Positions 7,832 through 22,835 of a DNA stretch of 40,000 nucleotides are shown here, piece by piece; within the stretch, counting starts at the first letter, position 1; each line of letters begins with the position of its first letter. The stretch comes from Proteus alimentorum (GTDB lineage: Bacteria > Pseudomonadota > Gammaproteobacteria > Enterobacterales > Enterobacteriaceae). The notes beneath the pieces are model-generated. The model searched no databases. It was given only the letters and a program-made list of their open reading frames with translations, and was not told where the DNA came from. The DNA is taken from contig NZ_NBVR01000034.1 of NCBI RefSeq assembly GCF_002607735.1, forward strand, positions 6,328 through 46,327. Direction: 5' to 3'. The position numbers and the translations under genes were made by a program.

Positions 7832-8000
7832 GATTTTTTCATCAAGTTATAAAAATATTACTACTAGCATACCTATTCACATTTGTATGTGAGCTAATTT
7901 TATTTTTAGTTATTTAAAATGTTATTAAATATTTACTAGCAAAAAAAGCTCAATAACTTTATTGAGCTTTAAAGCTTATTAAATTTTATTTAAGCAAGCA

Positions 8001-8888
8001 TTAATCTTGTTGCCAAGAAATATCTTGTTCACCTTCTTGAGTTTTCAGCAGAACCAATTCACCTAACTCTGTTGTTTTATAGGTATTCAGTCTATAGTGC
8101 TTCGTTTTTTTCCCTGTTTGAGGATCTTTTGTTATCCAACTGATATTACCTTCAAAATCAGTTCCTTGATAATAAGTCGAAAAGCGTTTACGTTCACCAT
8201 CATACCAACCAACAACAATTACTGACTTAACACCCGCCATTAATTCTTCTAAAGGAAATTCTGACAGTAATACACTATTATTACCCACAGTTGCTACACA
8301 CGCTTTTCCACCCACAAAAGCACTGCAATTAGCATCAAAACCAAAAACTGATGAATTATTACCAAAAATAGCCGCTGTTTTAAAATTTCCTTCAGAGCCG
8401 ACCTTAGCGTTATTTCCAGTTGCTATGCCAATACTTCCTTCAGTAAGATCTTGGATCCATATATCATTACCTGTTGATATTGCTGTTGAATTAGAGGCAT
8501 AGCAATAGATAATCGCTTCGTCACCGGTCGTAATAGCCACTGAATCTTTCACAAGATTGACTTCTGCTGCTTCAATACTCTCATCTAGTTCAAAAGAATA
8601 TGAGATCTCAGCTTTTTTACCTGATGCAAAAGAGATTGATTGGCTAGATGCTTCAATAAAACTTTCTGCACCTGTTGTAATAAAAAGAGAATTTTTACCA
8701 TGCTTAATATTGCTTCCATTCTCACTAAACTCTACGCCTTCATTATCATAGATTTTAGCTTTATTACCAGTATGAATAATCTGAGCATCTTCACCTATAC
8801 AATTAACGATTTGCTCATTTAAAGTTAAAATGGCATTTTTATTTTCTCCGCTTAAAACAAGCGCATTATTTGTTGTTACGTTTGACAT
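8001..8888 (-). CDS. Beta-solenoid-like repeat protein of unknown function
   Basis: Start taken at MSNVTTNN (ATG 8888, AGGA 8 nt upstream), because the longer ORF would overlap its own promoter and LexA box. About 10 degenerate repeats of the form S.A..TG..A.I, then a distinct roughly 80-aa C-terminal domain. Confidence 0.7.
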   Translation of the reverse strand: MSNVTTNNALVLSGENKNAILTLNEQIVNCIGEDAQIIHTGNKAKIYDNEGVEFSENGSNIKHGKNSLFITTGAESFIEASSQSISFASGKKAEISYSFELDESIEAAEVNLVKDSVAITTGDEAIIYCYASNSTAISTGNDIWIQDLTEGSIGIATGNNAKVGSEGNFKTAAIFGNNSSVFGFDANCSAFVGGKACVATVGNNSVLLSEFPLEELMAGVKSVIVVGWYDGERKRFSTYYQGTDFEGNISWITKDPQTGKKTKHYRLNTYKTTELGELVLLKTQEGEQDISWQQD

Positions 8889-8930
8889 AATAATATCCTT
8901 ATTTAGATTTCCATTATTTAACACAAAAAA

Positions 8931-8950
8931 CACTGTTTAAATATACAGTA
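8931..8950 (-). promoter_or_regulatory. LexA (SOS) box overlapping the promoter of the 8001..8888 gene
   Basis: CACTGTTTAAATATACAGTA matches the TACTG(TA)5CAGTA consensus at 17/20, with CTG-N10-CAG intact. On the minus strand it overlaps TTGTTA (8962-8967) -16 nt- TATATT (8940-8945). Confidence 0.65.
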
Positions 8951-9409
8951 TATTTACTAAATAACAATCTCTATATTAAATTTTAGAAAATAAAATAACG
9001 ATAATAAAATCAAATAAATAAAAGCAAGTAACACATAATATATCTATAATTAATCAAATAAAGAAAAAATAAAATAGAAAAACTTAAGAAGAAAGATGAT
9101 GACCGAGCTTTATATAAAACTAATCCAACATAGGTTAAGTAACTTATTTAACAATTACTTTTGATCTTTTTAAAATATAAGAAGAGATAAAAAAGCGAGT
9201 TGCTTTGATATGGATGTGCAAAATCGCACATCAATAAAATGATGTGTCTATCTCATCCGCAAAAATCGGGGCGCTCATTATCATAAATAATAAACAATAG
9301 TATAAATATTCGAAGGTTTAATCACATTCGAAAGCTTATATCATCTATTCAATGACCTTGAGCAAATTGCCCCATTCTGTTTTGATTAGGCGCTTCTCTA
9401 TAGCTATAT

Positions 9410-9442
9410 AAAAGAAAAGCCACCTTTATCAAATGATAAGGT
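9410..9442 (-). terminator. Intrinsic terminator, probably the original fliE terminator displaced by the prophage
   Basis: The minus strand reads ACCTTATCA-TTT-GATAAAGGT followed by GGCTTTTCTTTT. It begins 3 nt after the TAG that follows the attL copy of the fliE 3' end. Confidence 0.45.
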
Positions 9443-9445
9443 ACT

Positions 9446-9464
9446 ACACTTGCATGCTCATAAT
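9446..9464. repeat. attL core (19-bp direct repeat ACACTTGCATGCTCATAAT)
   Basis: Identical to 22843..22861. The flanks diverge on both sides. The repeat is the reverse complement of the last fliE codons (I M S M Q V). Confidence 0.8.
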
Positions 9465-9523
9465 ATGGGAGTACAGATATCGAAAATATGAAAAGTTCGA
9501 GTTAGTTCAAGATTAGCAGATGA

Positions 9524-9582
9524 TTACCGCAAATTATTTTCTCAAGCGTTAGTGAGTTCGAGAAAGTTTGCGGTAATTTTTT
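9524..9582 (+). terminator. Long hairpin plus T-run (terminator-like) in the attL-proximal arm; function unassigned
   Basis: Perfect 11-bp arms ATTACCGCAAA (9524-9534) / TTTGCGGTAAT (9567-9577) with an inner TTCTC/GAGAA pairing. The final stem T (9577) begins a six-T run, 9577-9582. Confidence 0.35.
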
Positions 9583-9646
9583 GCCCCCTATACGTCCCCA
9601 CCTACTACCTTCCTGCTATACTCTCCAAAAACTAACCAGATCCGTT

Positions 9647-9877
9647 ATGAACCTCGCAAACCTAACTCAAGAAGAAAAAGACAAGATTAATGTCGATTTA
9701 GCTGCTTCAGGTATCGCATATAAAGAACGCCTCAATATGCCAGTTGTCGCGTCCGAAGTTGAACGACAACAACCAGCACATTTGAGAGCGTACTTTAATG
9801 AACGATTGGCGTTTTATCGTGAGAAAAGTAAGAGTTTGCCGGACGGGAATTCGGTGCAGTATTTGAAAACAGAGTGA
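9647..9877 (+). CDS. Hypothetical prophage-end protein (moron-like)
   Basis: 76 aa from ATG 9647 ([13 protein letters not shown]...). The upstream part of the ORF has only a TTG start. No clear SD. The stop abuts the convergent tfa stop. Confidence 0.4.
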
Positions 9878-10294
9878 TTACTCTGGTTTTTGTGGCCATT
9901 CAATATCTGGCGCTAACGATGTATCCACATTTGTTAATGCATATCGATAACGTTGCCACAAATCCAATCGTTTAATATCCCTTTTTTCAATGTACCCGCC
10001 ATTTTGGGCATCAGACATCGGATCGATAACGCTAGTCGCCTCACTAATTAACGATGCCTTTTTTCTCTCTTCCACCATAACCATTTCATCTTTTGTTAGT
10101 TGTGGCTTATCTCCCCATGCTGGAAGACCGTCTATTGCAATTCTAATTTTATTATCCGGGGGATTTTTAGAGAACTCCTCATAAATACTATCATCAACTA
10201 ATATCGCATCTTCCGGAAATGTTCCTGCTGAAATGTAGTCGGACTTCATGTCTTCAGGATAAAACGAGTTTGTCTTTTCACTAAAAAAATACAT
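9878..10294 (-). CDS. tfa: Tail fibre assembly protein (Tfa chaperone)
   Basis: 138 aa directly after the tail-fibre gene. N-terminus MYFFSEKTNSFYP and C-terminus LWQRYRYALTNVD...IEWPQKPE are typical of the caudoviral Tfa family. Confidence 0.85.
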   Translation of the reverse strand: MYFFSEKTNSFYPEDMKSDYISAGTFPEDAILVDDSIYEEFSKNPPDNKIRIAIDGLPAWGDKPQLTKDEMVMVEERKKASLISEATSVIDPMSDAQNGGYIEKRDIKRLDLWQRYRYALTNVDTSLAPDIEWPQKPE

Positions 10295-10295
10295 A

Positions 10296-11735
10296 TTAAT
10301 ACCCCACCGCTAGCCACATTATACGAATATTTGGCGCCGTCATTTCTGTCGCTATCTTTGATAATGTTGATTTTGATAAATTGATACCGATGTTTTTAGC
10401 TCCGTCATAATCAATTATGGATACCGATGCTATTGATGAAGGGAATGCTATTGGTAGGTCAATAAAGAAATCATCATATGATATATCTTTTCTTCCCCAC
10501 TGATAAATAATCCCTGTATCACCACATTTCCACCACCCATTTTGAGATTTTAATGATGTGTTTTTGAGCCCGTAATTTCCTTTCGGTTGGTAATTTTTCA
10601 CAGCCTCACTTCTTGGTAAAAAAACATCCAACTCATCTTTAGTTACTGCTACCCCCTTTTTTTTCGGTAATGTAATTGCAGTATGATAATCAGATGTGTC
10701 ATTTGCTTCTTCTCGTGAATATACTGTAACTGATCCGTCAGATTCACGATAAAGACGAACTGAACCATTCGCGCAGTTAACAGATCCCCGCCCAGCAGAG
10801 TCCACTCCCCCTGTTATTGTGTGATTGCCATAATTTATTTTCTTATCTAACTCTTTCGTGAAATCACTGGTTGTTACATAACTTCCTGCTGGCTGATAGT
10901 TACCCGCTGGTTGTTTCTTTCCTAATTCCCTCGCTAATAAATCAAGACTGGGAACTTTGTTAACATCATTGCCCAACTGCTGAGAGATGCTGGCTTTATC
11001 AATCTTCTTATTAAGCGCCACATTCATCGCTGATGTAGTGACAAAATTAACTAAATCACTAATTAGCGCTGCGATACCTTTCTTCTTTGGAAGTTCAAAT
11101 GATGTAACATAATTTGATTCATTATCAGGAAGCTCCCTACTGAATATGGTGACCACTCCTGCGCTGTTTCTGTAAAACCTCAAAGAGCCATCTGCAGCAT
11201 TCACAGAACCATTACCTGCCGAGTCAACACCTCCTGTTATTGCGTGATTACTGAATGTTATTTTCTTATCCAACTCGCTTTTAAAGTCATTTTTATTAAC
11301 AAAGGTATCAGTAGACGCTTTCTGACTCATTACGCTTGTTGTTGACGTGCCTGTGGATTGGACTACTGCGGTTTTGTCGAGTTTGTTATTTACACCTAAA
11401 AAATCAGCTAGCGGCTTCCAAGCATTTTGCGAAGTATTCGGCTGTTCTCCCTTTGTTACTTTTAATGCAACATAAAAAACAGATGATTGCTGTACCAATG
11501 CATCTTTCGGATAATCAACTGCGTCATCCCACTCAGCTAAACCACGCTGTGTTAAATACATTAACCATTCATCGACACGTTTACCGATAGCGTTGAACCA
11601 TTCTAATGGGGGTTTTCCTGCTGTTCTTTCCAGTGTGACGCCCCATCCGCGAAGTACATCTGGAAATGTTTCTATCTCACCTGTTTTTGCATCTTGTGCA
11701 AATATTTTTAGGTCTGGCTTTTTAATTACTGACAT
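10296..11735 (-). CDS. Tail fibre protein
   Basis: 479 aa. Conserved fibre N-terminus (DLKIFAQDAKTGE...GWG...YLTQRGLAEWD). Two internal 73-aa repeats. C-terminal NGWWKCGDTGIIYQWG block typical of fibre tip domains. Confidence 0.85.
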   Translation of the reverse strand: MSVIKKPDLKIFAQDAKTGEIETFPDVLRGWGVTLERTAGKPPLEWFNAIGKRVDEWLMYLTQRGLAEWDDAVDYPKDALVQQSSVFYVALKVTKGEQPNTSQNAWKPLADFLGVNNKLDKTAVVQSTGTSTTSVMSQKASTDTFVNKNDFKSELDKKITFSNHAITGGVDSAGNGSVNAADGSLRFYRNSAGVVTIFSRELPDNESNYVTSFELPKKKGIAALISDLVNFVTTSAMNVALNKKIDKASISQQLGNDVNKVPSLDLLARELGKKQPAGNYQPAGSYVTTSDFTKELDKKINYGNHTITGGVDSAGRGSVNCANGSVRLYRESDGSVTVYSREEANDTSDYHTAITLPKKKGVAVTKDELDVFLPRSEAVKNYQPKGNYGLKNTSLKSQNGWWKCGDTGIIYQWGRKDISYDDFFIDLPIAFPSSIASVSIIDYDGAKNIGINLSKSTLSKIATEMTAPNIRIMWLAVGY

Positions 11736-12378
11736 TCATTAACCTCGTAAATTTTCCATCATTGAATCCGAGTGAGTACGGATCATTAGCCCACCCAAAC
11801 GGGTGAGAGTCAGTGATAACTAAATATTTATAATTGACACCTATTGGCCTAACTAAGATGTCCAAGTTTTTTATGGCGTAAAGCCTGAAAGGAGTTAAAT
11901 AATCAGCTGGAACTACAATATTCATTGTCATATCGTAGTTATCTATAACAAATGTTTGCTCGCCTAATAGGTTTCTTATGGAATATGTAATTCCCTCAAT
12001 ATCAGGTGATTGGTAATTTTTTGTGATCTTCGCTTCAATAAAAAAACGATAATCTTCATCATCCAGTTTTGATGATTCTTTCAATGAATCACCGTAGCGA
12101 TAAAAAACACCTGCATTAAAACCAAGAGCACCATCAATACCTAAGAACCCAAAATAATCCTTTGGGATAAATGACTTCATTATTCGATTAATACCAACAT
12201 GCTTGCCGATTAAGTCAAGCCCATATCCTGATGATTGTTTTACATTTAAGATTGTTGATAGTCGTATAACTGATTCAAATGACCTCTTTGTTTCAGATAG
12301 CAAAAGCCCGGCTGTTTGTCGGGCCTTGGGTTTTCCTCTGTATTGCCAAATTAGAAAATCTTCTCTTTGTTTACTCAA
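11722..12378 (-). CDS. Baseplate/tail-fibre connector protein (DUF2612-like)
   Basis: 218 aa. The N-terminus FLIWQYRGKPKARQ resembles DUF2612. It sits between the baseplate J gene and the fibre gene, with overlapping stop/start codons. Confidence 0.6.
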   Translation of the reverse strand: MSKQREDFLIWQYRGKPKARQTAGLLLSETKRSFESVIRLSTILNVKQSSGYGLDLIGKHVGINRIMKSFIPKDYFGFLGIDGALGFNAGVFYRYGDSLKESSKLDDEDYRFFIEAKITKNYQSPDIEGITYSIRNLLGEQTFVIDNYDMTMNIVVPADYLTPFRLYAIKNLDILVRPIGVNYKYLVITDSHPFGWANDPYSLGFNDGKFTRLMNVSN

Positions 12379-13495
12379 TTAGCACCTCCACATCTTCCGG
12401 CCTAATTTGAGCGCACTGTCTAACTCCAACTTTCACCGAATCTGAACCATTAACGGTAATGGATTTGATATAGAAACCTTGTACTGAGTTAACCTGACAA
12501 GTTAAGCGCATAGCATAGACTGATTCGCCTATTTCAAATGATGTGTCCGATAATGCTGATTTTATGCTTTCTGTGTCAATATCATGAAACCCACCTACCC
12601 TTTCCAATAAGAGCTTAACTTTAATATTGACGTTAGATGCTCTATCAAATTTAACTGTCCTTTGTGCTCCTGCATATTCTTGAGTATTGCTGATGCTCCC
12701 AAACACACCGCAACCACCTATTTTCTTTTTAAGAATAGTCAGACCTATATCATCATCACTGCCACCAATCACAACCGCATTTAGTGAATGAGCAGGTACA
12801 CCTTTATCATCTGTTTGGTTCGTGAAGTTTTCGTATACTCTAGCTTGTTTTACGTCAGGCAAATCAAGTAAAGCACCCTCAAGCCCTTGCCTGTCATCAT
12901 GATTATTAATTGAGTGCGAACGCATGAACCGGGTTAATAAACTACCGTCCATCTCTTCGAACACACCTTCTTTAGCTATTTTTGTTGTCGTTATTTTTTC
13001 AACACCAACAATCACTGTGTCCATCGACAACTCTTTCCCAGCTTGAATTGAGAAAGCGCCTAATTCATGACTTCTCATATTCACCCTTGCCGATCCATTA
13101 ATATCTAAAACAATATCAGCAAGTGTCACCCACTTTGATAAATTTCCATCTGAGAAAATAGAGCCTTTTGGTACCTTTACGCCTTGCTTTCCTGTTACGA
13201 TCACGTCATCTAAGTAACTATAATCTGCACCTCGACGAACAATGCCGGCATACATTGCTCGTTGTTCTAACCATGCGCCAGTTGCTTTGTAGGGATCTAA
13301 CATCTGAGCAATCATTGATAATGCCTGATTGATGCTGTCTATTTCTTGAGAGAATAAACCTATCATCTGCCCGTCAGGGCTATCTGCATCAATACTAATA
13401 TCATCGCCGTAAATCCGTTTAAAACCGTCAGTGAGGCGTTTATGCACATCTGACAGACTATCAATAACTATCCCTGTTTCAGTTATTTGGAGCAT
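12371..13495 (-). CDS. Baseplate J-like wedge protein
   Basis: 374 aa. The N-terminal region (DADSPDGQMIGLFSQEI...ATGAWLEQRAMYAGIVRRGA) is characteristic of the Baseplate_J family. Coupled to its neighbours. Confidence 0.75.
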   Translation of the reverse strand: MLQITETGIVIDSLSDVHKRLTDGFKRIYGDDISIDADSPDGQMIGLFSQEIDSINQALSMIAQMLDPYKATGAWLEQRAMYAGIVRRGADYSYLDDVIVTGKQGVKVPKGSIFSDGNLSKWVTLADIVLDINGSARVNMRSHELGAFSIQAGKELSMDTVIVGVEKITTTKIAKEGVFEEMDGSLLTRFMRSHSINNHDDRQGLEGALLDLPDVKQARVYENFTNQTDDKGVPAHSLNAVVIGGSDDDIGLTILKKKIGGCGVFGSISNTQEYAGAQRTVKFDRASNVNIKVKLLLERVGGFHDIDTESIKSALSDTSFEIGESVYAMRLTCQVNSVQGFYIKSITVNGSDSVKVGVRQCAQIRPEDVEVLIE

Positions 13496-13841
13496 CTGTG
13501 TTTACCTCATTTTCTTTTCCGTAAATATCAATATACGTGACAGATATTGTGAATCGTCGCGTGTCGGGATTAAGCTGGATATCAAAATCAGTGATCTGCT
13601 CTACGCCATCTGTATTTAAAACAGTGCCTTTTATCTCTGTTTCCATTGCGATGAGATTTGGATTTTTTCGCAAGTAATCAAACCAGCGAACACCATGCTC
13701 TGTGTTGAGAAACCAGTCATTACGCAGAGATAGAAGTCGCGTTAAAACAGATTGGCTAATCGCCTCAGATTTTGTTGCGTAGTCAGCTCGCCCGCTTCCG
13801 AAAGTCCAATCATGATTATTATCAAGTCGTCTTACTTTCAT
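13479..13841 (-). CDS. Small baseplate wedge protein (GpW/gp25-position)
   Basis: 120 aa. Its position immediately upstream of baseplate J and the overlapping coupling are the only evidence. Sequence family not firmly recognised. Confidence 0.5.
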   Translation of the reverse strand: MKVRRLDNNHDWTFGSGRADYATKSEAISQSVLTRLLSLRNDWFLNTEHGVRWFDYLRKNPNLIAMETEIKGTVLNTDGVEQITDFDIQLNPDTRRFTISVTYIDIYGKENEVNTDAPNN

Positions 13842-14494
13842 TAATTGGGCGCTCCTGTATTTCCATGACCGGTTTCAACACCACTATGAGTATGCGTATC
13901 ACCAATATTTTTGCCGTTGTGTTTAATGGAGCCACCTGATGATTCGCTATTGCCTTTCACTGAGTGATTACCATTTATAAGCGTATTACCTTCTTGCGTA
14001 TTATTTCCTGTGTGTTCGATATCGCCTTGAATAAGGATCTTCCCTTTTTTCATTCGAATAAATGTTGAACCATCATCGGTCTGCATTGATAGTGAATCAC
14101 TGGAGTAATCAGGTATCTTATTTGGCTGACTACTTCCCATCGGTAGGAAGAAAGCATCAGATAAATCATGAAATCGTGTATCTAATGGCACGGATTGTTT
14201 GCCTGAAGCATACCAGCCATCAATGCAACGCTCGGAAAATATAGCCAGCCCCTCATCACCCTCTTTCAATGGAACAGTAACACAAAAGCCACCTCCACGA
14301 TAAAATCCAACTGGCACATCGACTAGAGGAGGCAAGGCAATCGAACCACCATCTTTCATTAAGTGGGTTATCATTAATTCAACTGTTGCGCTATGTCCGT
14401 CACATGAAATAAGACGGGCGGGTAATGCTGTATGTATGTCTTGCCGTTGGTTTTCTGATTGTCTCGATAAAACATCCAGTAGAGATGGTTCCAT
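13841..14494 (-). CDS. Baseplate central spike protein (Gp138 N-terminal-domain-like)
   Basis: 217 aa. N-terminus DIHTALPARLISCDG...VELMI...LPPLVDVPV. Gly/His-rich C-terminus (GDTHTHSGVETGHGNTGAPN) typical of spike tips. Confidence 0.6.
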   Translation of the reverse strand: MEPSLLDVLSRQSENQRQDIHTALPARLISCDGHSATVELMITHLMKDGGSIALPPLVDVPVGFYRGGGFCVTVPLKEGDEGLAIFSERCIDGWYASGKQSVPLDTRFHDLSDAFFLPMGSSQPNKIPDYSSDSLSMQTDDGSTFIRMKKGKILIQGDIEHTGNNTQEGNTLINGNHSVKGNSESSGGSIKHNGKNIGDTHTHSGVETGHGNTGAPN

Positions 14495-15318
14495 TATTTT
14501 TCCACCTTTTTAAACCTGCCGCCTATGCAGGTAATTTGTGAATACCAATCATCACCAAGAAAATCACCCTCATGGCTCAATTCAGTAATTTTATAATCAC
14601 CGTTATATTCAGACATGATTGACTGAACTCTAACTAAGCCACCAATGCGCAATGATGGATTACACAAACACGTTAAACTAAGACCATCATCCGTTTTCTC
14701 AGGTGAGCCAACCATTCCGGTTTCTTGTGAAAGCACAAAACCCTCGTTATCAGCAAGCACCTTATCTTTGGGTAATACAGTCATTTGACCATCTTGAATA
14801 GACCATTGAACATCGTTATTCTTGGCTATCTTGTGAAGTAACTCACGAGGATCGCCGAACATCACTTTACCTCGAGGAAGTTGCCTATCTTTTGGTAAAT
14901 CAACAACACCAGTCTCTATCCCCATCGACTGAGTATTTTCTTTCAGAATTTCAGCGTCACTCTTACCAGCTGACAGTGTTTTATTTACCACTGATGATGT
15001 GTAGGCTTTAAAACCATCACCACATATCAACTCACTAATAAAATCCTCACCATCTCTCAGCGTGTTGGCTTCAACAATATCGCCTGCGTAAATTTGACGT
15101 AGTTCTTCATAGCCCACTGACAGTGAGGCCCTATTGAATTCGTTGCTTGTTAGTAAGTTACGATGAGAAGCGTTGAGGTTATAAATTCTGATAACTGCGG
15201 GATTTGGTTCTGGTGTTAATGTTTTTTTTACTTCGAAAGTTACTCTAAGGTTTGTTATTTCTAATGATTCTTTATCGCTGCCAATAACTAATTTAAGTTG
15301 TCGTCCGAATTGCCTCAC
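14494..15318 (-). CDS. Baseplate hub-like protein
   Basis: Start reassigned to GTG 15318, which has AAGGAGG 6 nt upstream. The longer ORF overlaps the preceding gene by 50 nt. 274 aa, in the baseplate operon. Confidence 0.55.
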   Translation of the reverse strand: MRQFGRQLKLVIGSDKESLEITNLRVTFEVKKTLTPEPNPAVIRIYNLNASHRNLLTSNEFNRASLSVGYEELRQIYAGDIVEANTLRDGEDFISELICGDGFKAYTSSVVNKTLSAGKSDAEILKENTQSMGIETGVVDLPKDRQLPRGKVMFGDPRELLHKIAKNNDVQWSIQDGQMTVLPKDKVLADNEGFVLSQETGMVGSPEKTDDGLSLTCLCNPSLRIGGLVRVQSIMSEYNGDYKITELSHEGDFLGDDWYSQITCIGGRFKKVEK

Positions 15319-15631
15319 GCCAAACCTCCTTATCAACAACATATAACCTAAGTCGATTACCTAGCTCATTTTGAGAGACCGAGTTAATACCGAACTGTGA
15401 CTTATCAGATAGCATTAGAATAAAAGGTAAGTTCTTTTCTAACAGCGAAGGCGCATTAACAGCTAACCCCTGACGTTGAGTGATCACTCTATTTTTATCC
15501 GCATCGAATAGGTCAAACTGCCAGCCTTTTGATACAGAATTAAAATAAAGTGTTAAGCGAATATTCATATCGAACAATATAAATATCTGCTCCTGACTGG
15601 GTTTGCTTGATACTGGTATTTCATAAATCAT
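15293..15631 (-). CDS. Hypothetical baseplate-module protein
   Basis: 112-aa ORF translationally coupled on both sides within the structural operon. Confidence 0.5.
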   Translation of the reverse strand: MIYEIPVSSKPSQEQIFILFDMNIRLTLYFNSVSKGWQFDLFDADKNRVITQRQGLAVNAPSLLEKNLPFILMLSDKSQFGINSVSQNELGNRLRLYVVDKEVWREAIRTTT

Positions 15632-16392
15632 GGCTTAATCCCCATCATATCTTTTAGCGCGCCTGCACCGTCTTTTATGAGAGATGAATTACCACCTTTA
15701 ACCTTATCAGTAGGTTGTGTGCGCCCCATATTCTGTTTTTGAGGCTGACCTTTTAAATCAGGATGAAGCCCTTTTGCGGTCTGATTCTCAACAATAAATA
15801 TCTCCTCAAGGGTTAAAGTAACCTCAGCAGAACCCGGTTTATCTTGAATCGTACCGATATTCGTTATCATCATGTTTTTGTATAACTTAATACCCGTTTG
15901 CACATCTATCGTTTCACCGCGTTTTTGCAGTGATAACAAACTATCGTAAGCTCGACCAACTCTATCTAGTGTTTGAGATGTATCAGCGCTACCTATGCCA
16001 GAATCGGGATACCACGGTGCTAATACTTTTCCTACGGCATCAAGACCAGCATTAGCAATGCCAATATATTGCTCAATCATTGCTTCTGCTTGTTTTGTAT
16101 TCGCTGATATTTCTAATGGCAATGGGTAATCATCAAGCACGGAAGTATCGAACCCCGTCAGGTTCTTAAAGTTTTTAGGTGGCTCATAACCAACAACAAC
16201 GCCTGTTACAGTTAATGTTTTAGGTTCTAGAATCGCGTGATCTGCAATGTCAGCACCAGACTCAACAGGGTTCTTTGTTAGTCGTAACGATGAGGCGTGC
16301 TCTTCTCTTACTGTGCAATCGAGAATGAAGTCACCAATAGAGCGTGTAATCACCGACGCTCTACCTGTAAATAAACCACTTGTTAAGTCCAT
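15628..16392 (-). CDS. Tail/baseplate structural protein (first surviving gene of the structural operon)
   Basis: 254 aa, GGAG RBS 6 nt upstream of ATG 16392, coupled to the downstream genes. Family not firmly recognised. Confidence 0.5.
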   Translation of the reverse strand: MDLTSGLFTGRASVITRSIGDFILDCTVREEHASSLRLTKNPVESGADIADHAILEPKTLTVTGVVVGYEPPKNFKNLTGFDTSVLDDYPLPLEISANTKQAEAMIEQYIGIANAGLDAVGKVLAPWYPDSGIGSADTSQTLDRVGRAYDSLLSLQKRGETIDVQTGIKLYKNMMITNIGTIQDKPGSAEVTLTLEEIFIVENQTAKGLHPDLKGQPQKQNMGRTQPTDKVKGGNSSLIKDGAGALKDMMGIKP

Positions 16393-16404
16393 ATTGGCTC
16401 CAAT

Positions 16405-16430
16405 AAAAAAGGCCGCTTATGCGACCTTTT
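16405..16430 (-). terminator. Intrinsic terminator after the 201-aa membrane-protein gene
   Basis: The minus strand reads AAAAGGTCGC-ATAA-GCGGCCTTTT (one mismatch) running into a T-run. It lies between stop 16446 and the structural-gene start 16392. Confidence 0.55.
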
Positions 16431-16445
16431 GAGAAATTTTAATAT

Positions 16446-17051
16446 TCAAAAACCAAACTGCTCATGGTAAATACAGACTATGGTAGCAGATAAAATAAAA
16501 CTTAAGATCAAAATAAGCCAATCAAAACGTGTTATTTTTGATATCTTATCAGAAACTGGAAGCTTTGGAAGATCTTCAAGCTTCATGTAAAATGAGAAAC
16601 TTACCGCCATTGCCACCATAAAACCAAAAAACAAATACAACTTGTTAGATATACCAATAAAACCAGTAATGAAGAAAAAAGGTGTTACCAGATCAAGAAA
16701 ATAAATAACCATTAACCAAGCTAATTGCGTCTTTGGAGTTAAAGGTGATTTATTTCTTTTCTTTATACAGCTACACAAAAACTCAATGAGTTTAATTAAA
16801 AAATATGAAACAATCCCAGCAATAAAAGAAGTCTTCAAAATACCGCTAGCTTCAACCCCCCCAAACATTAGGGATATAAAATATGGGCATAAAAAAGAAA
16901 TAGCAAAAGTTACTAGGACTATTGCTAAGAAAAGAAAGATTCTAACCTTTAGTTTATTTACCACTTCTGCTTCTATTATTTTTTTTGTTGTAGTTTCTAT
17001 TGTCGCTTTTATTGTAGTTTCTATTGTCGTTTTTGTTGCTGCCACTTTCAC
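16446..17051 (-). CDS. Multi-pass membrane protein of unknown function (prophage moron)
   Basis: About 200 aa, GTG start with GGAG upstream. A charged N-terminus carries a TIETT(I/T)K repeat, followed by about five hydrophobic helices. Terminator-like hairpins lie on both sides. Confidence 0.55.
   Translation of the reverse strand: MKVAATKTTIETTIKATIETTTKKIIEAEVVNKLKVRIFLFLAIVLVTFAISFLCPYFISLMFGGVEASGILKTSFIAGIVSYFLIKLIEFLCSCIKKRNKSPLTPKTQLAWLMVIYFLDLVTPFFFITGFIGISNKLYLFFGFMVAMAVSFSFYMKLEDLPKLPVSDKISKITRFDWLILILSFILSATIVCIYHEQFGF
16988..17035. repeat. 2 x 24-bp tandem repeat inside the membrane-protein gene
   Basis: ttgtagtttctattgtcgctttta / ttgtagtttctattgtcgtttttg, 22/24 identical. It encodes the duplicated TIETTIKA/TIETTTKK segment. 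Confidence 0.85.
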
Positions 17052-17118
17052 CTTCTCCCCATAACACCCTTAATTGTTAATTTAACTTAACATTACATTA
17101 TTACTAATTGAAGTTAAA

Positions 17119-17141
17119 GAAAAAAGCCTCAGTTAAGAGGC
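17119..17141 (-). terminator. Intrinsic terminator after the RexB-like gene
   Basis: The minus strand reads GCCTC-TTAACT-GAGGC followed by TTTTTT. A second hairpin (cagaagg...ccttctg, 17171-17192) lies just before it. Confidence 0.45.
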
Positions 17142-17203
17142 GTGGTGAAATTCAGGTAATAAGAAACCCGCAGAAGGCAGTATTACCTTCTGAAAACAAA
17201 AAA

Positions 17204-17641
17204 TTAATTATTTTTCTTTATGTTCAAGAGTTGAATCCCAAGGAAACCTATAAGTAAAAAAGTTATCATTGAGAAAGTTAATGAGTATGATGCAACCTTA
17301 ATACTTTGTATGTTAGACAAGCAAAGCAAGGACAGGCACATTGTAACCCCAAGCTCAAGAAAAGTTATCATATAAATAAAATAAGTTGTGTGTAGATAAC
17401 CACCTTTTTTAAAGTTATCTAATCTCGGCCCATCCAATCCAAAAATCACAACAACCATAGCTATAAGTAATGCCATCATTGCTGTTGAGTAGGTAACCAG
17501 AGACGAACCTAGGTTACCTAAGTTGTCTTTAAAGGTAACCGTATGGAAAAGGTATTTTTTTGACAGGTAAAGCGCACCAAATCCCACTCCATTGCAGAGT
17601 GCGATCACAGTGAGCCCTGTCATGAAATCCTTTATTTTCAT
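17204..17641 (-). CDS. rexB: RexB-like four-TM membrane protein
   Basis: 145 aa (lambda RexB is 144 aa) with four hydrophobic helices. The block YLHTTYFIYMITFLELGVTMCLSLLCLS parallels YMTSVVIVYALSFVELGALFFCGLLLLS of lambda RexB as recalled. It starts 11 nt after the RexA-like gene. Confidence 0.6.
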   Translation of the reverse strand: MKIKDFMTGLTVIALCNGVGFGALYLSKKYLFHTVTFKDNLGNLGSSLVTYSTAMMALLIAMVVVIFGLDGPRLDNFKKGGYLHTTYFIYMITFLELGVTMCLSLLCLSNIQSIKVASYSLTFSMITFLLIGFLGIQLLNIKKNN

Positions 17642-17652
17642 ACCATTACCTC

Positions 17653-18462
17653 TTAATAACCCAAGTTTCTTAGAGTTGCATTGTTAGTGTAGTTGTTTTC
17701 CATCTGTGTGTTTATGTCTGTAGTGCTACTTGTATTTACAAAGTCACAAACGGTATTGGACATGATTACATTCAGATCAGTAGCCACATCCCCGATATGT
17801 TCCTTAGCGGACACTGCAACCGATGTTACTTCCTGAGGCATTGCGCTCATCACTCCTGAGAATGTGTCTTTAATGTCTCTTGCTCTTTTTGGTATTATCT
17901 TTATCTCAAAAGAATCAACATCATCGTATGAAACGTTACCCGCAAATAATGTGCCTAGGCGACCAATCAGATTCTGAGACTTATCTAACTTCATTGTTAT
18001 TCTACCAACGTGAGCATAGTTAAGTACTTCTTGTTCTGTTACCTGATTCGCTATCGGTTCAAAATTTATATTGTGATTATTGTTTCTTGCTAACATTACC
18101 AAGTCATAAATTTCAGCTAGCTTACCTATTCTTGGTGAGTACAAAGTATTGCTAAAGCCAATTAAATTGTTCTTAATAATGAAGAATGAAGCGAAGGCTA
18201 TCTTTTCATTTGCGGTTAATATCTGAGATAAATCCACACATATATTATTACTAAGATCCAGCTTTCTAAATACATCTCTACTGTTAGTCTTTATGAACGT
18301 ATATACATCACCAGCAACAGGCTGAATGACATAGTACTCTCCAGCCATATTTGCCGTGTTATTTCCACTTGATATCATTGAATCTATTGTGTCTTTTAGG
18401 CTTTCTGATGGCACGTAACCATCAACTGGAAGATACCTGTAAGTAAAATAATTTGTTTTCAT
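17653..18462 (-). CDS. rexA: RexA-like protein
   Basis: 269 aa from MKTNYFTYRY (ATG 18462). By eye it is collinear with recalled lambda RexA: FIKTNSRD vs FTKTNDKS, IAFASFFII..LIGFSNTLYSP vs LGFPSFLFV..TIGFARTVFGP, HVGRITMKL vs FIGRTTVKV, SFEIKIIPKRARDIK vs SLDIVIKPKFKRDIK. Confidence 0.6.
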   Translation of the reverse strand: MKTNYFTYRYLPVDGYVPSESLKDTIDSMISSGNNTANMAGEYYVIQPVAGDVYTFIKTNSRDVFRKLDLSNNICVDLSQILTANEKIAFASFFIIKNNLIGFSNTLYSPRIGKLAEIYDLVMLARNNNHNINFEPIANQVTEQEVLNYAHVGRITMKLDKSQNLIGRLGTLFAGNVSYDDVDSFEIKIIPKRARDIKDTFSGVMSAMPQEVTSVAVSAKEHIGDVATDLNVIMSNTVCDFVNTSSTTDINTQMENNYTNNATLRNLGY

Positions 18463-18579
18463 CCCTAATATCCACGTAATTTTTTTACGTAATTTTAGGA
18501 CATAAATTAAATTTATACATCTGTGAATAAAAACACTGGTTTTATATTCACAAACTATATATGTAGCCATAACAAGATA

Positions 18580-18623
18580 TACTGCATATATATACAGTAT
18601 ATCTTGTTTTTTTGATGCCTCAA
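18580..18623 (-). promoter_or_regulatory. LexA (SOS) box plus overlapping sigma70-type promoter upstream of the RexA-like gene
   Basis: 18580-18599 TACTGCATATATATACAGTA matches the LexA consensus at 19/20. On the minus strand TTGAGG (18618-18623) -16 nt- TATACT (18596-18601), so the box covers the -10 element and the start site. Confidence 0.7.
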
Positions 18624-18720
18624 GAGAAGTCTTGTAAAGATTATTTTAGTAATTCGGCTATCTTCGGACAAGATTGGGATTGGTGCTTTCAGAAAACAAC
18701 AAGCCGTCCTTGGCTTTATG

Positions 18721-18965
18721 CTATTTATCCGTAATGGTAAATTGTTTCTTTAGCTCTGAAACTATTTCATATTTTAATTTTGATAATGCATCATGAGTTA
18801 TTTTTTCTTCATCAAATTCGCTTAGATAAAATTCAATAGCTTGAACAATTTCTGAGTTAATAGACCGTCCATTTCCTTTGCTCTTTCAGCTATAGCATCC
18901 TTCATTCCGTCAGGAAGCCTTAGATTAAACCTATCCTGTAATTGGCTTGGGTACTCTTGCGTCAT
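18721..18965 (-). pseudogene. arc: Arc/Mnt-type ribbon-helix-helix repressor gene with a 1-nt frameshift
   Basis: ATG 18965 (AAAGG RBS) gives MTQEYPSQLQDRFNLRLPDGMKDAIAERAKE. The frame then breaks in the A-run at about 18871-18874. The shifted frame continues NGRSINSEIVQAIEFYL...TITDK*, restoring the Arc signature FNLRxP...ENGRSxNSEI. Total length is 245 nt, one short of a multiple of three. Confidence 0.7.
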
Positions 18966-19011
18966 TTCGTTACCTTTATTTTTATCCAATGCTTGATCAT
19001 TACTACTATTG

Positions 19012-19926
19012 TTATGCGATTAGTGGAGTATTTAAAATATCTCCGCTTTTCTCACCTTGTAGAACTTGAGTGCGCAGGCGGAAGTTTTGTAACAACTCAA
19101 TGAGAGCATTAGAGTCACGTTGTAATTTTTGAATATATTCAACACTGACAACGTTATGACCATCAACACTAACTACTTGTTGCTTGCCACCCTTATAAGA
19201 AACCAACCATCTACCTTCTTTTGGTATGGTTACAGTGATTGAGCTTTGATTCGGCTCAAAAAGTATATTTTCTTCCTGTTTAGGAATGTATTCACCTTCA
19301 AGTACAAATTTGTGAATATACTCAACCGCATCAGGTATCTGATCCGCTGTTAATTCTTCAATGCTACTAACATTGAATTTCTGGTGAACAAGAGAATAGG
19401 CTTCTGGATACATAATGCCTTTCTTGCTAACCAATAGATTGACAGCATTCTTTAATGGGTTGCGTTCTTGAACAGTTGATTTGTGTTTTTTCTTAACCTC
19501 ACCAGTAGTCCAGTATTCGTAAAGTACATCGTCACATTCTTCTTGATACTTGATTACTTTATCGCGGATCTCTGGTTTGACTTTGTTAGGGCTGATAGTG
19601 TGAAGCCAGCCAGATAATTTTCTAAGAGCGATACAAACCATGTTACGCAATTTTCCATCTTCGGCAACCATTTCGATTTCCGAAACACTTGAATTAAAGC
19701 GTTGTTTTAACTTGGCAAATTGAGCACCCCATGCTAAACCCATACCCTCTACGATAGGGCGCATTGGTACATATGGTTCGCCATTGAAATTTACTACATA
19801 CAAGTTGTTACCGTGGAAAGTTGCTTGGATTATTTGGTGATGATGCTTGGTATAACGGCTGGCCAACTGTTCCCAACCCTGAATATCTAAGAATGGAATC
19901 ACGATTAAACGCTGTTCGTGAGGCAT
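19012..19926 (-). CDS. ant: Phage antirepressor (P22_AR N-terminal domain type)
   Basis: 304 aa. FHGNNLYVVNFNGEPYVPMRPIVEGMGLAWGAQFAKLKQRF...MVAEDGKLRNMVCIALRKLSGWLHTISPNKVKPEIRDKVIKYQEECDDVLYEYW matches this antirepressor family. The N-terminal start is uncertain. Confidence 0.8.
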   Translation of the reverse strand: MPHEQRLIVIPFLDIQGWEQLASRYTKHHHQIIQATFHGNNLYVVNFNGEPYVPMRPIVEGMGLAWGAQFAKLKQRFNSSVSEIEMVAEDGKLRNMVCIALRKLSGWLHTISPNKVKPEIRDKVIKYQEECDDVLYEYWTTGEVKKKHKSTVQERNPLKNAVNLLVSKKGIMYPEAYSLVHQKFNVSSIEELTADQIPDAVEYIHKFVLEGEYIPKQEENILFEPNQSSITVTIPKEGRWLVSYKGGKQQVVSVDGHNVVSVEYIQKLQRDSNALIELLQNFRLRTQVLQGEKSGDILNTPLIA

Positions 19927-19948
19927 TAAAACAAATAAAGGTGGAGTG

Positions 19949-20191
19949 ATGGATAAATCAAGGCAGCAGTTTGAAGAGTGGATAAATAAAAACCACCCTA
20001 AATGTAGTAAGTATCACAAGGATATTAGGCTTGAAGCATGGCAGGTATCACGCGACTCACTCTTATTAACTCTACCAGAAAGAGAGAAAAGTACAGGTAA
20101 TTATGATTATTTCACTGATGGATATAACAGTGGAATATCAGCATGTGAAACGGTCTTATTAGATAATGGAGTGAAAATAAAAAATGAATGA
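19949..20191 (+). CDS. Hypothetical phage early protein
   Basis: 80 aa from ATG 19949 with GGTGGAG RBS. First of a run of tightly coupled small ORFs. Confidence 0.5.
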   Translation: MDKSRQQFEEWINKNHPKCSKYHKDIRLEAWQVSRDSLLLTLPEREKSTGNYDYFTDGYNSGISACETVLLDNGVKIKNE

Positions 20192-20339
20192 TAAATATAA
20201 AGCCGAGCTAATTAACGGCAAGCCAGTTATTTTATTAAATGGGAGTATGATTGAAAAAGGATTTATTTCAATTATAGATGCGGAACAAAAGGCTGATAAA
20301 TTAAATCAAGCATCAATAAAAAATAACCAAGTCGAATAA
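20184..20339 (+). CDS. Small hypothetical phage protein (51 aa, hand-translated)
   Basis: ATG 20184 overlaps the previous stop. MNDKYKAELINGKPVILLNGSM... Below the ORF-track cutoff, supported only by the coupling pattern. Confidence 0.3.
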   Translation: MNDKYKAELINGKPVILLNGSMIEKGFISIIDAEQKADKLNQASIKNNQVE

Positions 20340-20351
20340 AACAAAATAACC

Positions 20352-20513
20352 ATGCAAATAATCGGATATGTATTACTCATGCTAATACAGGGTTCTGCTG
20401 TGCCTGTAACGGAAGATATATATACGCAATTGGAATGCAATAAACGTGCTGAATATTTAATGTCAGTGAGGAATATTGAAGTTGTTTGTGGCGAGGTGAT
20501 TCATGGGAAGTGA
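20352..20513 (+). CDS. Small hypothetical phage protein (53 aa, hand-translated)
   Basis: MQIIGYVLLMLIQGSAVPV... has a hydrophobic N-terminus. Its stop overlaps the next ORF start. Confidence 0.3.
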   Translation: MQIIGYVLLMLIQGSAVPVTEDIYTQLECNKRAEYLMSVRNIEVVCGEVIHGK

Positions 20514-20712
20514 ACTAATTCAAATTCCAAGGAATTTGCTAGAGGAATTAGCGTCGGAGTATCAAGTTAAAATATCTTGGTTTATGGAGGCGTATAAGGG
20601 TTATTACGATGTGGTAGGTTCTAGATATAACAGGGATTACAACGATTATGTCGATAACTTTAATGTCGCCGCTGATTTATTAGGTTGGGATAAGATGGAG
20701 AAAATAGAATGA
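20503..20712 (+). CDS. Hypothetical phage protein
   Basis: 69-aa ORF in the coupled early-gene string. Confidence 0.45.
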   Translation: MGSELIQIPRNLLEELASEYQVKISWFMEAYKGYYDVVGSRYNRDYNDYVDNFNVAADLLGWDKMEKIE

Positions 20713-20885
20713 AAGATAAATATTATGCTGGATTAGAAAATTACAAAGATTGTATTGAGATTGAACCTACAACAAAGGATTGCTTTGTTTTAAATGCTCC
20801 ATCTTGGAATATGGATTTAACAAAACAGGATTTGATTGATATCAGAAATACTATTAATGAAATACTAGAGGCTGATAATGAATAA
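20709..20885 (+). CDS. Small hypothetical phage protein (58 aa, hand-translated)
   Basis: ATGA overlap with the previous stop. Its end overlaps the next ATG (20878). Confidence 0.35.
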   Translation: MKDKYYAGLENYKDCIEIEPTTKDCFVLNAPSWNMDLTKQDLIDIRNTINEILEADNE

Positions 20886-21237
20886 ATACACCGAACTATC
20901 TGACTTCGAGATTAATAAAAAGGTTGCTATTAATGTCGGTGGATTCGCACTATCTCTAATGGTTTTTGATGATCGCAATGGGGTAGTAAAAAAGAATATC
21001 CCAAATATTGGCTCGCGGGTATTCACTGAATTCAACCCATGCAACAACCCAGCCGACGCAATGACGATTATTATTGAGAATAAAATAGGAATGAATTTTG
21101 TTAATAACAATATAGGCTGGTCTGCAATTCATCAATGCATAATCAAAGGCGAGCTAGAAGTATATGGAAAGCGATACTATCGAACGGCAATGGAATTATT
21201 TTTATTAATGAAGGATGCGGAGAATGAAAAAGTATGA
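20878..21237 (+). CDS. NinX/DUF2591-like phage protein
   Basis: 119 aa. LSDFEINKKVA...FNPCNNPADAMTIIIENKI resembles the DUF2591 (NinX) pattern. Confidence 0.55.
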   Translation: MNKYTELSDFEINKKVAINVGGFALSLMVFDDRNGVVKKNIPNIGSRVFTEFNPCNNPADAMTIIIENKIGMNFVNNNIGWSAIHQCIIKGELEVYGKRYYRTAMELFLLMKDAENEKV

Positions 21238-21826
21238 CTTGATATTGTGCGACCCACCTTGGCCTTACAATAACAAAGTTTCAAATGGCGCAGCAGATAA
21301 TCATTATAACACCACCGATTTATATTCCCTCTCTCGATTACCAATAGAAAAACACTCCTCTAAAAATGCCGTGCTGTTTATGTGGTACACCGGAAACTTT
21401 GCACTCGAAGCAATTAAATTAGCCGAAGCATGGGATTTTAAAGTTAAAAACATGTTCGGGTTCGCATGGGTGAAATTAAATAAAAATGCAGGAGATAGAA
21501 TAAATAAAAAACCGCCAGAAGATTTTTTTGACTTTATGGAAATATTAAACAATGAGACAAAGATTAATTGCGGTAATTACACCCGTCAAAATGTCGAAAT
21601 GTGTTTAAGAGCCACAAGAGGAAATGGATTACCTCGTAAGTCTGCAAGCGTTAGGCAAGTTATTTATTCGTGCTTAGGTGAGCACAGCGAAAAACCAAAA
21701 GAAGTCCATCATCGTTTAGAGGAATTATATGGAGATGTTCCACGGCTCGAATTATTCGCTCGTGAGAAATACGGTGATTGGGATGTATATGGCGACCAAG
21801 CAGAAGAAAGTATTCAATTAATATAA
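21224..21826 (+). CDS. MT-A70 family DNA N6-adenine methyltransferase (orphan)
   Basis: MKKYDLILCDPPWPYNN carries the DPPW catalytic motif. About 200 aa. No adjacent endonuclease. The start could be ATG 21215 or 21224. Confidence 0.85.
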   Translation: MKKYDLILCDPPWPYNNKVSNGAADNHYNTTDLYSLSRLPIEKHSSKNAVLFMWYTGNFALEAIKLAEAWDFKVKNMFGFAWVKLNKNAGDRINKKPPEDFFDFMEILNNETKINCGNYTRQNVEMCLRATRGNGLPRKSASVRQVIYSCLGEHSEKPKEVHHRLEELYGDVPRLELFAREKYGDWDVYGDQAEESIQLI

Positions 21827-21839
21827 AAGGAAGAGAAAG

Positions 21840-22076
21840 ATGGATAACTTAACTCAGTTGATGCCAAATAAATGGGTGACAGAACCGGTTTTAGTTGCTA
21901 TCACAGGAATGAAACCGGGAACAATAAAGCGAGCTAGGGAAAGCTCATGGGCAATTGGCAGAGAATATATTCACGTATCGCCAGAAGGAGAACCAAAGCC
22001 AAACTCAGAGTGCATGTACAATCATCAGGCAATCAACACATGGATTGAGAGACAAATAAAGAAACAACCGAGGTGA
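21840..22076 (+). CDS. xis: Excisionase (DUF1233 type)
   Basis: 78 aa. KWVTEPVLVAITGMKPGTIKRARESSWAIGREYIHVSPEG...SECMYNHQAINTWIE matches lambdoid DUF1233 excisionases. It lies immediately upstream of int. Confidence 0.8.
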   Translation: MDNLTQLMPNKWVTEPVLVAITGMKPGTIKRARESSWAIGREYIHVSPEGEPKPNSECMYNHQAINTWIERQIKKQPR

Positions 22077-22080
22077 TGTA

Positions 22081-22835
22081 ATGATTAAATATCCGACTGG
22101 GGTTGAGCTGCATAATGGCTCCCTCAGGATAAATTTCGTTTATAAAGGAAAAAGGATTAGGAAATGGCTGGCTATGCCAGATACAGCGAAGAATAGAAAA
22201 ATTGCTGGTGAATAAGGCCGGGTGAGTTAACAGGATTAGCATGGGAGGATATAGACTTAGTTAAAAAGACAATAATGGTCAGAAGGAATGTTTGTGGCCC
22301 TTCCGACTTTTCATACCCGAAAACAGGTGCGAGCACTGATAGGATAATTAGTTTATTAGAGCCAGCCTTTAACTGCCTAAAGGATCAGTCTCTATATACA
22401 AAGATGACAGCTCCAATTGACGTTAAAGTAAAAACTCGTGAGTTTAATAAATATCGAACAGACTCATGCACATTTGTTTTTCAACCATCCATTGTTAGTG
22501 TGAATGGCGTTATTACTAAATTTTATTCACCGGGAGGTTTCTCGCAAATATGGAGATCATTAATTAGAAGATCTGGCGTTAGGCACAGAAAGTCATATCA
22601 AACAAGGCACACCTATGCTTGCTGGATGTTATCTGCTGGAGCGAATCCTGCATTCATTGCAACACAGATGGGGCACTCGTCATCAAAAATGGTACACGAT
22701 GTTTATGGTGCTTGGATGCCTGAGAACGATCAAGACCAAATATCGCTATTAAACCAAAAATTGAATGATTCTGTCCCCTATGTGTCCCCACCGAGTCACA
22801 ATAAAGGTAATATTCGACTTATATCAAATAGTTAA
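22081..22835 (+). pseudogene. int: Integrase with internal deletion and frameshift
   Basis: ATG 22081 encodes a 44-aa arm-binding N-terminus (MIKYPTGVELHNGSLRINFVYKGKRIRKWLAMPDTAKNRKIAGE) ending at TAA 22213-22215. A different frame opens at 22212 (..GELTGLAWEDIDL...TRHTYACWML...GHSSSKMVHDVYGAW). The core-binding domain and the first catalytic Arg box are absent. Confidence 0.8.

Follow-up and report, generated by a model that had tools for sequence, protein, structure and literature searches.

A RexA/RexB-type gene pair behind a predicted LexA operator in a prophage remnant of Proteus alimentorum

A 40,000-nucleotide (nt) stretch of Proteus alimentorum DNA (contig NZ_NBVR01000034.1, positions 6,328 to 46,327; hereafter the window, in whose numbering all positions are given) contains two adjacent minus-strand genes, homologues of the phage lambda exclusion genes rexA and rexB, which lie in a prophage remnant behind a promoter-like site overlapped by a LexA (SOS) box. 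A first-pass annotation, made from the letters alone, had read this locus as a Rex pair wired to the SOS response instead of to a cI repressor. Here, we describe the genes, the box and their relatives, and we put at about 65% the probability that the pair is a LexA-operator-controlled cassette, carried by prophages as a moron, which would be silent until SOS induction and would then exclude phage as lambda Rex does.

Identity of the gene pair

The 269-residue product of the first gene was matched by the RexA models of Pfam (PF15969; 2.9e-31, residues 1-225) and PADLOC (9.8e-107, full length) and by the PHROG 'RexA-like exclusion protein' (1.4e-26), and it aligned with lambda RexA in BLASTP at 23% identity over about 240 residues (8e-25). 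A profile built from 18 relatives matched a single solved structure, that of lambda RexA (PDB 8TWQ), at 1.6e-33, with residues 19-259 collinear with residues 20-260 of the lambda protein. The likeness to RexA that had been judged by eye in the first-pass annotation is thereby borne out. A longer reading of rexA (305 residues, from 18570) was considered and rejected, since every homologue, like the family models, has MKTNYF as its first residues; the longer start is unsupported because Pfam RexA aligns from residue 1 of the 269-residue form.

Downstream of the rexA stop codon, after a gap of 11 nt and on the same strand, begins a gene for 145 residues whose product was matched by Pfam RexB (PF15968; 3.6e-12), PADLOC RexB (5.7e-52) and a RexB-like PHROG (1.3e-16), and by lambda RexB in BLASTP (28% identity over about 120 residues, 7e-16). 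In the latter alignment its FLELG block is paired with the FVELG of the lambda protein, and a Kyte-Doolittle scan places its four hydrophobic segments in the layout of lambda RexB, which confirms the four-transmembrane, RexB-like neighbour initially described. The order rexA-then-rexB was found in every related locus in which the downstream gene was read, and the pairing itself is kept in almost every locus examined (with the rexB frame shortened in a few). The two genes are homologues of rexA and rexB, with strong and collinear homology, and belong to a distinct subfamily (267-271 and 145 residues, respectively) of the lambda Rex system.

LexA box, promoter and leader

The LexA box upstream of rexA matches the 20-mer consensus TACTG(TA)5CAGTA at 19 of its 20 positions, the sole deviation lying in the right arm (GCAG for ACAG) and the CTG/CAG cores being intact; when the window was shuffled 100 times with its dinucleotides preserved, no match to the consensus turned up, even with three mismatches allowed. 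Scored with a position-specific scoring matrix (PSSM) of E. coli sites, the box reaches 21.0 (the median of the training sites being 19.1), and its approximate heterology index of 3.5 falls within the range of these sites. Only two sites in the 40-kilobase (kb) window score at least 12, namely this box and one at 8931-8950.

The box overlaps by 4 nt the -10 hexamer of the TTGAGG-16-TATACT site, a -10 that the first-pass annotation had already described as covered by it, and spans the predicted transcription start (about 18589). No second promoter-like site stands as close to rexA on its upstream side: none between the box and rexA passed the consensus scan, and the other minus-strand site within 250 nt (TTGTCC-17-TAAAAT, 18671..18643) lies further upstream, its -10 reading TAAAAG in Proteus relatives, where the final T is lost. 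Taken all together, promoter-like sites occur in the window no more often than in its shuffles.

The 141-nt leader of rexA has a minimum free energy of -30.9 kcal/mol (z = -3.27 against shuffles) and is predicted to form two hairpins (Table 1). About 125 nt of it are nearly identical in the Proteus and Providencia loci, and hairpin 1 is predicted to be long and AU-rich; other folds are obtained for the leaders of Morganella and Xenorhabdus. In an alignment made by eye, the left arm of hairpin 1 (18553-18534, TTGTGAATATAAAACCAGTG) falls opposite the LexA box that the cassettes of these two genera carry, and it resembles a proximal box that has decayed, with GTG in place of CTG (approximate heterology index 10.7). 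In the predicted fold of hairpin 2 the ribosome-binding site is paired, and this could limit the translation or the dosage of RexA. A search of 16000-20500 against Rfam returned nothing meaningful.

Since terminator-like hairpins stand both upstream of the promoter and after rexB, rexAB looks like an insulated transcription unit, in which the upstream hairpin would shield the cassette from upstream transcription; an analogous terminator precedes the rexAB promoter of a Providencia prophage (L027).

Table 1. Position of the rexAB cassette and of other features of the prophage remnant in the window
Feature	Position	Strand	Basis
rexA homologue, 269 residues	18462..17653	-	Pfam, PADLOC, PHROG, lambda RexA structure
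rexB homologue, 145 residues, four hydrophobic segments	17641..17204	-	Pfam, PADLOC, PHROG, hydropathy
LexA (SOS) box, TACTGCATATATATACAGTA on +, TACTGTATATATATGCAGTA on -	18580..18599	.	consensus, shuffles, PSSM, relatives
Promoter-like site TTGAGG-16-TATACT	18623..18596	-	promoter scan
-35 hexamer TTGAGG of the rexAB promoter	18618..18623	-	promoter scan
-10 hexamer TATACT, 16-nt spacer	18596..18601	-	promoter scan; overlapped by LexA box
Leader hairpin 1	18519..18555	-	fold of leader
Leader hairpin 2, rexA Shine-Dalgarno (UAGGG) and start paired with upstream UCCUAA	18458..18506	-	predicted fold
Two terminator-like hairpins after rexB	17192-17171, 17141-17126	-	terminator scan
Terminator-like hairpin between arc-like gene and rexAB promoter	18701..18716	-	terminator scan
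arc/mnt-like ribbon-helix-helix gene, frameshifted	18721..18965	-	Pfam Arc on N-terminal half only
P22 Ant-type antirepressor gene	19012..19926	-	PF10547 9e-44, phrog_524 6e-76
Integrase, broken, in two pieces	22081-22215, 22275-22835		
Probable excisionase	21840-22076		recognised by eye only

Relatives that carry the box

We collected 45 rexAB loci (from genome, metagenome and viral scans and from exact look-ups) and scored their upstream regions with the LexA matrix. A RexA search of 5.8 billion proteins returned 28 clusters at 38-97% identity, all of which carry PF15969 and are either unnamed or annotated as 'hypothetical'; a scan of genome contigs with a single RexA protein gave one locus, from Morganella. 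In the boxed loci, boxes scoring 18.5-22.9 are located 93-137 nt upstream of rexA: they come from Morganella (L001, TGCTGTATAAATAAACAGTG), Providencia (L015/L027, TACTGTATATAAACACAGTT), Proteus (L021, CACTGTATTTGCATACAGTG; L022/23, TACTGTTTTTATATACAGTT), Proteus mirabilis (L028, TACTGCTTGTATATACAGTA), Xenorhabdus (L032, TACTGTGTTTACATCCAGTG) and an IMG/VR contig for which the host is not given (L016, TACTGTTTTTACATACAGTT). Counting that of the window there are eight different box sequences, and the genera are Proteus, Providencia, Morganella and Xenorhabdus. The CTGT/ACAG arms are retained among them, the interior and the flanks vary and the surroundings are often unalignable, a footprint such as would be expected of a working operator. 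As background, boxes scoring at least 18 occur outside the rexA upstream segments five times in 310 kb of these loci (0.004 per 250 nt).

The position of the box relative to the promoter is likewise found outside the window. In Providencia L027 (TTTACA-16-TATACT, the box beginning inside the -10) and in Proteus L022 (TTGAGC-16-TATACT) the overlap between TATACT and box is identical to that of the window; in both loci this box-overlapped site is the sole promoter-like site upstream of rexA. Because the box scores highly, lies over the -10 and the start and is conserved in four genera, the SOS wiring of rexAB is supported as far as sequence goes.

Where prophages carry it, the cassette points the same way as the tail or late genes and occupies several moron positions: between the tape-measure and baseplate-hub genes of an E217-like myovirus prophage; between tail-assembly-chaperone and tape-measure genes, among Arc, Bro-N or helix-turn-helix (HTH)-S24 regulators; and between a Q antiterminator and lysis genes. 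Several of the Morganellaceae carrier prophages are apparently intact, such as that on contig WLUG01000001 of Providencia sp. wls1922.

Relatives without the box

Within the subfamily of 267-271-residue RexA proteins the box is found only in the Morganellaceae prophage copies. The box-less loci, whose RexA is 38-90% identical to that of the window, are 3-5 kb Col-type mobilizable plasmids (of E. coli, Shigella, Serratia, Citrobacter, Yersinia ruckeri and Edwardsiella), Klebsiella-type chromosomal islands (beside WYL, GTPase, McrA-like HNH, DEAD-helicase and IS110 genes) and icd-adjacent remnants in Pantoea. The whole of this subfamily is uncoupled from cI.

The closest coding relatives (up to 90% identity; L044, L045, L029-L031 and H20-H37) are the main cargo of Col-type plasmids, and the commonest RexA allele (P0007, in L037-L040; 517 blocks of the collection) has a defence-island context with no prophage. 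Plasmid-like metagenome contigs (L024-L026) have no box at rexA and carry a LexA box, AACTGTCCATATATACAGTT (score 19.9), at about +2108 from rexA, beside a ParE/ribbon-helix-helix toxin-antitoxin pair.

Megablast with 16400-20000 found nothing similar among 50,697 phage records, and tblastn found a RexA match in 19 phage records, all of the lambda type and below 60% identity, so that no phage genome in that collection carries the cassette. Three annotations were read, those of lambda, Klebsiella phage ST101-KPC2phi6.1 and Hafnia phage yong1; in all the order is cro, cI, rexA, rexB, and none has a LexA box near rexA.

Mosaic origin and selection

Counted from rexA, the segment that runs from -98 to the end of rexB is shared by the window and Providencia L027 at about 98% identity; further upstream the two are unrelated. 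Compared with the Proteus loci, identity is 90-100% from -218 to about +140 (a segment comprising the promoter, the box, the leader and the first ~140 nt of rexA), whereas the remaining rexA of those loci is only 60-70% identical. In a neighbour-joining tree of RexA the window and Providencia alleles nest within the box-less plasmid/island clade, and the remaining boxed alleles group together as a clade of Morganellaceae. The mosaic identity and the tree together indicate that a coding region of the plasmid clade has been joined to a LexA promoter of Morganellaceae prophages. Given that the boxed cassette sits as a moron across Morganellaceae prophages, we regard the SOS wiring as a trait of a mobile cassette, not as an accident of prophage decay. 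The first-pass annotation had proposed an SOS-gated Rex system in a dead prophage; its LexA box and its dead prophage both stand, and the notion that the LexA promoter arose there as a substitute does not.

Both genes are under purifying selection. The ratio of nonsynonymous to synonymous substitution (dN/dS) against the closest relative is 0.26 for rexA and 0.39 for rexB (from small counts) and, in the more distant comparisons where it was calculable, 0.04-0.26 (the ranges being 0.08-0.26 for rexA and 0.04-0.39 for rexB). Both genes are full length and the neighbouring arc-like and integrase genes are broken; an intact pair amid broken genes is mild evidence of a function that benefits the host.

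The prophage remnant and its surroundings

The window is chromosomal, with fliC, fliD, fliS, fliT and glpM on one side of a prophage remnant and fliE, fliF, fliG and fliH on the other. The remnant, of about 15 kb (about 8.0-22.8 kb, ~8000-22835), splits this flagellar locus and holds tail-fibre and baseplate genes, a membrane open reading frame (ORF), rexB, rexA, the arc-like gene, ant, ninX and an MT-A70 methylase gene. In the arc-like gene the C-terminal half (GRSINSEIVQAIEFYL) continues in another frame, with the break near 18875, where, judged by eye, one A was apparently lost from an A-run; either decay into a pseudogene or an error in sequencing the homopolymer could account for this. 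No head, terminase, replication, lysis or immunity genes were found in the remnant, and no cI-type (HTH or S24) gene among its scanned ORFs, of which several small ones were read by eye only. With the broken integrase and the frameshifted arc-like gene, these absences agree with the original description of a dead prophage devoid of a cI-type gene.

Between rexB and the baseplate genes lies a 201-residue ORF for a multi-pass membrane protein (16446-17051, -), which has no significant family match in Pfam, PADLOC, PHROGs or NCBIfam and may be another moron. It was rejected as a third gene of the cassette, being separated from rexB by the terminator-like hairpins and absent both from the Proteus loci and from Providencia L027, a prophage that is otherwise syntenic. 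Where the remnant ends in tail-fibre genes, an ORF resembling by eye the theta subunit of DNA polymerase III (HolE/HOT; 9581-9877, +) matches in position a PF06440 gene of the Providencia prophage L027.

The second strong LexA box of the window (8931-8950, TACTGTATATTTAAACAGTG on the minus strand; 22.9 with the E. coli-site matrix) lies about 45 nt upstream of a 295-residue ORF (8001-8888, -) that occupies the AT-rich gap between the end of the prophage and glpM. This ORF has no match in Pfam or PHROGs, a weak similarity to NCBIfam YdhT (5.8e-10, far below the cut-off) and homologues in Proteus or unnamed metagenomes only; possibly the window thus holds another, uncharacterised gene under SOS control. 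Directly next to the flagellin gene (913-2055, -), a 209-residue ORF of the tyrosine recombinase family (47-676, +) might encode a recombinase that switches flagellin, or might be what is left of an integrase.

Proposed mechanism

The unit reads, in order, terminator, sigma-70 promoter, LexA operator, leader of ~125 nt, rexA, rexB and terminators. We propose that host LexA, by binding the operator, would block the -10 and the predicted start and so keep a potentially toxic pair silent in undamaged cells, and that upon damage the RecA-stimulated cleavage of LexA would derepress the promoter, RexA and RexB then being made together. By homology with lambda, RexA would be the soluble sensor or activator (a DNA-binding dimer) and RexB the four-transmembrane membrane effector, and the two would jointly collapse cellular energetics and abort phage growth. 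As to what might trigger such exclusion, SOS gating may arm the system when damage signals the induction of prophages in the cell or its kin; alternatively, the infection itself may generate RecA-activating DNA, or the gating may serve to confine Rex activity to the induction window.

Several observations weigh against this proposal. The LexA matrix (29 SOS boxes) and the heterology index both rest on E. coli sites. In one Morganella locus (L043) the box is degraded, with CTA for CTG and a score of 13.9; the only promoter-like site of Morganella L001 lies downstream of the box and no promoter passed the scan in the Xenorhabdus locus; on account of the latter two results, the geometry of repression is clear only for the Proteus and Providencia types. 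The close relatives on plasmids and in defence islands function without any box. Two basic residues of lambda RexA, R219 and K221, are required for DNA binding and exclusion: K221 has an equivalent (K220) that is invariant across the 18 RexA relatives, but the position of R219 is Ser218 in the window protein. Lastly, a tightly repressed system would come too late for fast lytic phages that shut down host transcription, which argues against a role as guard of the lysogen.

A more specific version of the proposal, which we hold only tentatively and consider rather unlikely as it stands, is that the Rex-type modules of Morganellaceae prophages have been rewired to exist only in SOS-induced cells, which would make prophage induction, and not the quiescent lysogen, the native arena of Rex. 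If so, the cassette might sabotage co-induced competing prophages and superinfecting phages, or help its carrier commit to lysis, and it would represent a natural variant that separates the two proposed roles of Rex (exclusion versus aid to the passage from lysogeny to lysis).

Alternative explanations

The best-surviving alternative, to which we give a clearly lower probability, is that the LexA-controlled cassette, rather than excluding other phages, mainly helps its carrier prophage through the switch from lysogeny to lytic growth, with RexA stabilising the lytic state and RexB modulating proteolysis or toxin-antitoxin pathways and SOS. Lambda RexA biases the CI/Cro switch towards lysis without RexB, and the authors of that work question whether exclusion is its true function (PMC11077077); studies that implicate rexB in the lysogenic-lytic switch are among those cited there. 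Expression restricted to SOS would coincide with prophage induction, and the cassette is co-oriented with the tail and late genes of the prophages and stands beside ant and arc in the window. The carriers, however, have unrelated regulators (Arc/Bro-N; an HTH-S24 repressor; a Q-lysis region), and since the cassette moves among them, interaction with a specific repressor is unlikely. Moreover, near-identical coding sequences reside on 3-5 kb plasmids and in defence islands, where there is no prophage to induce, and the pair stays intact in a remnant that is no longer inducible.

It is improbable, in our estimation, that the LexA-like palindrome does not work or is bypassed, so that rexAB would be expressed constitutively from another promoter or by read-through from ant, arc or late genes. 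This explanation could draw on the second promoter-like site further upstream, on the box-less relatives (which evidently work with ordinary promoters), on the degraded box of L043 and on the frequency of promoter-like sites as a class, which does not exceed that in shuffles. Yet eight distinct high-scoring boxes occupy the same place in four genera, far from what the background rate would give; the TAAAAT of the upstream site is not conserved in the Proteus relatives, any transcript that starts there must still cross the box, and terminator-like hairpins insulate the cassette on both sides.

Very improbable is a third explanation, by which RexA would be induced by SOS and would act mainly on RecA and recombination in the manner of RdgC, as a feedback element akin to DinI or RecX, while RexB would be accessory: lambda RexA does have the same fold as RdgC, a protein that restrains both strand exchange by RecA and the RecA-dependent cleavage of LexA (PMC11077077), and LexA control would suit a modulator of RecA, but the pairing with a membrane protein is kept almost throughout, some copies sit in defence islands and a link to RecA has been reported for no RexA.

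Relation to known systems

The window pair and lambda rexAB share homologous proteins of similar sizes, the rexA-then-rexB order with a short gap, a four-transmembrane RexB and carriage by a prophage. In lambda, rex is transcribed during lysogeny from the repressor-maintenance promoter PRM (PMC11077077). RexA and RexB acting together are reported to cause energetic defects and to exclude phage (PMC11077077; PMC12894663); the authors of the RexA structure ask whether exclusion is a mere by-product (PMC11077077). The window pair, in contrast, is neither adjacent to cI nor co-transcribed with it from a PRM-type promoter. Co-transcription with cI from PRM describes the lambda-type members, and the Pfam and PADLOC definitions do not require linkage to cI. 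The expected response to damage differs as well: lambda rex transcription is shut off once CI is cleaved and Cro represses PRM, whereas SOS induction is predicted for the window pair because its own promoter carries a LexA operator.

Prophage-borne two-gene Rex-type pairs are also known from Pseudomonas putida prophage P1 (RexAB(pp)) and from the actinobacteriophages Sbash (gp30/31), CarolAnn and Toast; of these, the P. putida pair and the rex-like genes of Sbash and CarolAnn have been shown to defend against phage (PMC12894663; PMC11077077). The P. putida pair belongs to an operon headed by a putative repressor (PP_3896) and several actinophage pairs stand beside cI-like and cro-like genes, while the pairs of Sbash, Butters and Rubeelu are, like that of the window, separated from the immunity repressor (PMC12894663; PMC11077077). 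The box-less members of the subfamily on Col-type plasmids and Klebsiella islands (RexA 58-90% identical) share with the window the rexAB pair and its autonomy from cI, and differ from it in having no LexA box and other promoter regions. Neither PMC12894663 nor PMC11077077 reports a LexA operator for Rex, and our full-text literature searches found no report of a LexA-controlled Rex, in line with the suggestion of the first-pass annotation that such a regulatory logic had not been described. On the strength of the operator-like box, rexAB under LexA would constitute a new regulatory arrangement of a known system.

The arrangement itself has precedents among other mobile genes. A host LexA operator overlaps the promoters of colicin operons, of coliphage 186 tum and other antirepressors and of SOS toxins (tisB); such LexA-repressed accessory genes on mobile elements are potentially lethal or linked to lysis and are expressed only in SOS-induced cells. 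Here, by comparison, the cargo is a Rex-type pair of sensor and membrane effector. The WYL-type regulators DdaA, BrxR and CapW likewise tie the expression of defence or abortive-infection systems to a DNA-damage signal, and the rationale offered for such damage-coupled defence is that damage triggers prophage outbreaks (PMC12392091). Those regulators are, however, the systems' own and sense single-stranded DNA, while the switch predicted here is the global SOS repressor. A 2025 preprint reports for the defence systems of E. coli a correlation with recA expression that is, on average, negative, a trend against which the cassette would run, given its predicted SOS-induced expression.

Significance

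Rex is the oldest known phage-exclusion system, and its trigger and true purpose are still debated. All described rex genes that we found have the prophage immunity region next to them or not far off, and those of lambda and P. putida share a transcript with the repressor gene. Placing the same proteins under the host damage repressor would reverse the expected response to SOS and make the question of timing testable: whether Rex works when it is made only after damage, against which phages it would act and whether the host or the prophage would benefit. The survey also brings to light a widespread RexAB subfamily, carried by small plasmids and defence islands, whose members are at present annotated as hypothetical proteins only. 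If the proposed control holds, an abortive-infection-type module would be added to the LexA regulon, and SOS-inducing antibiotics (e.g., fluoroquinolones) could alter the phage susceptibility of Proteus, Providencia and Morganella.

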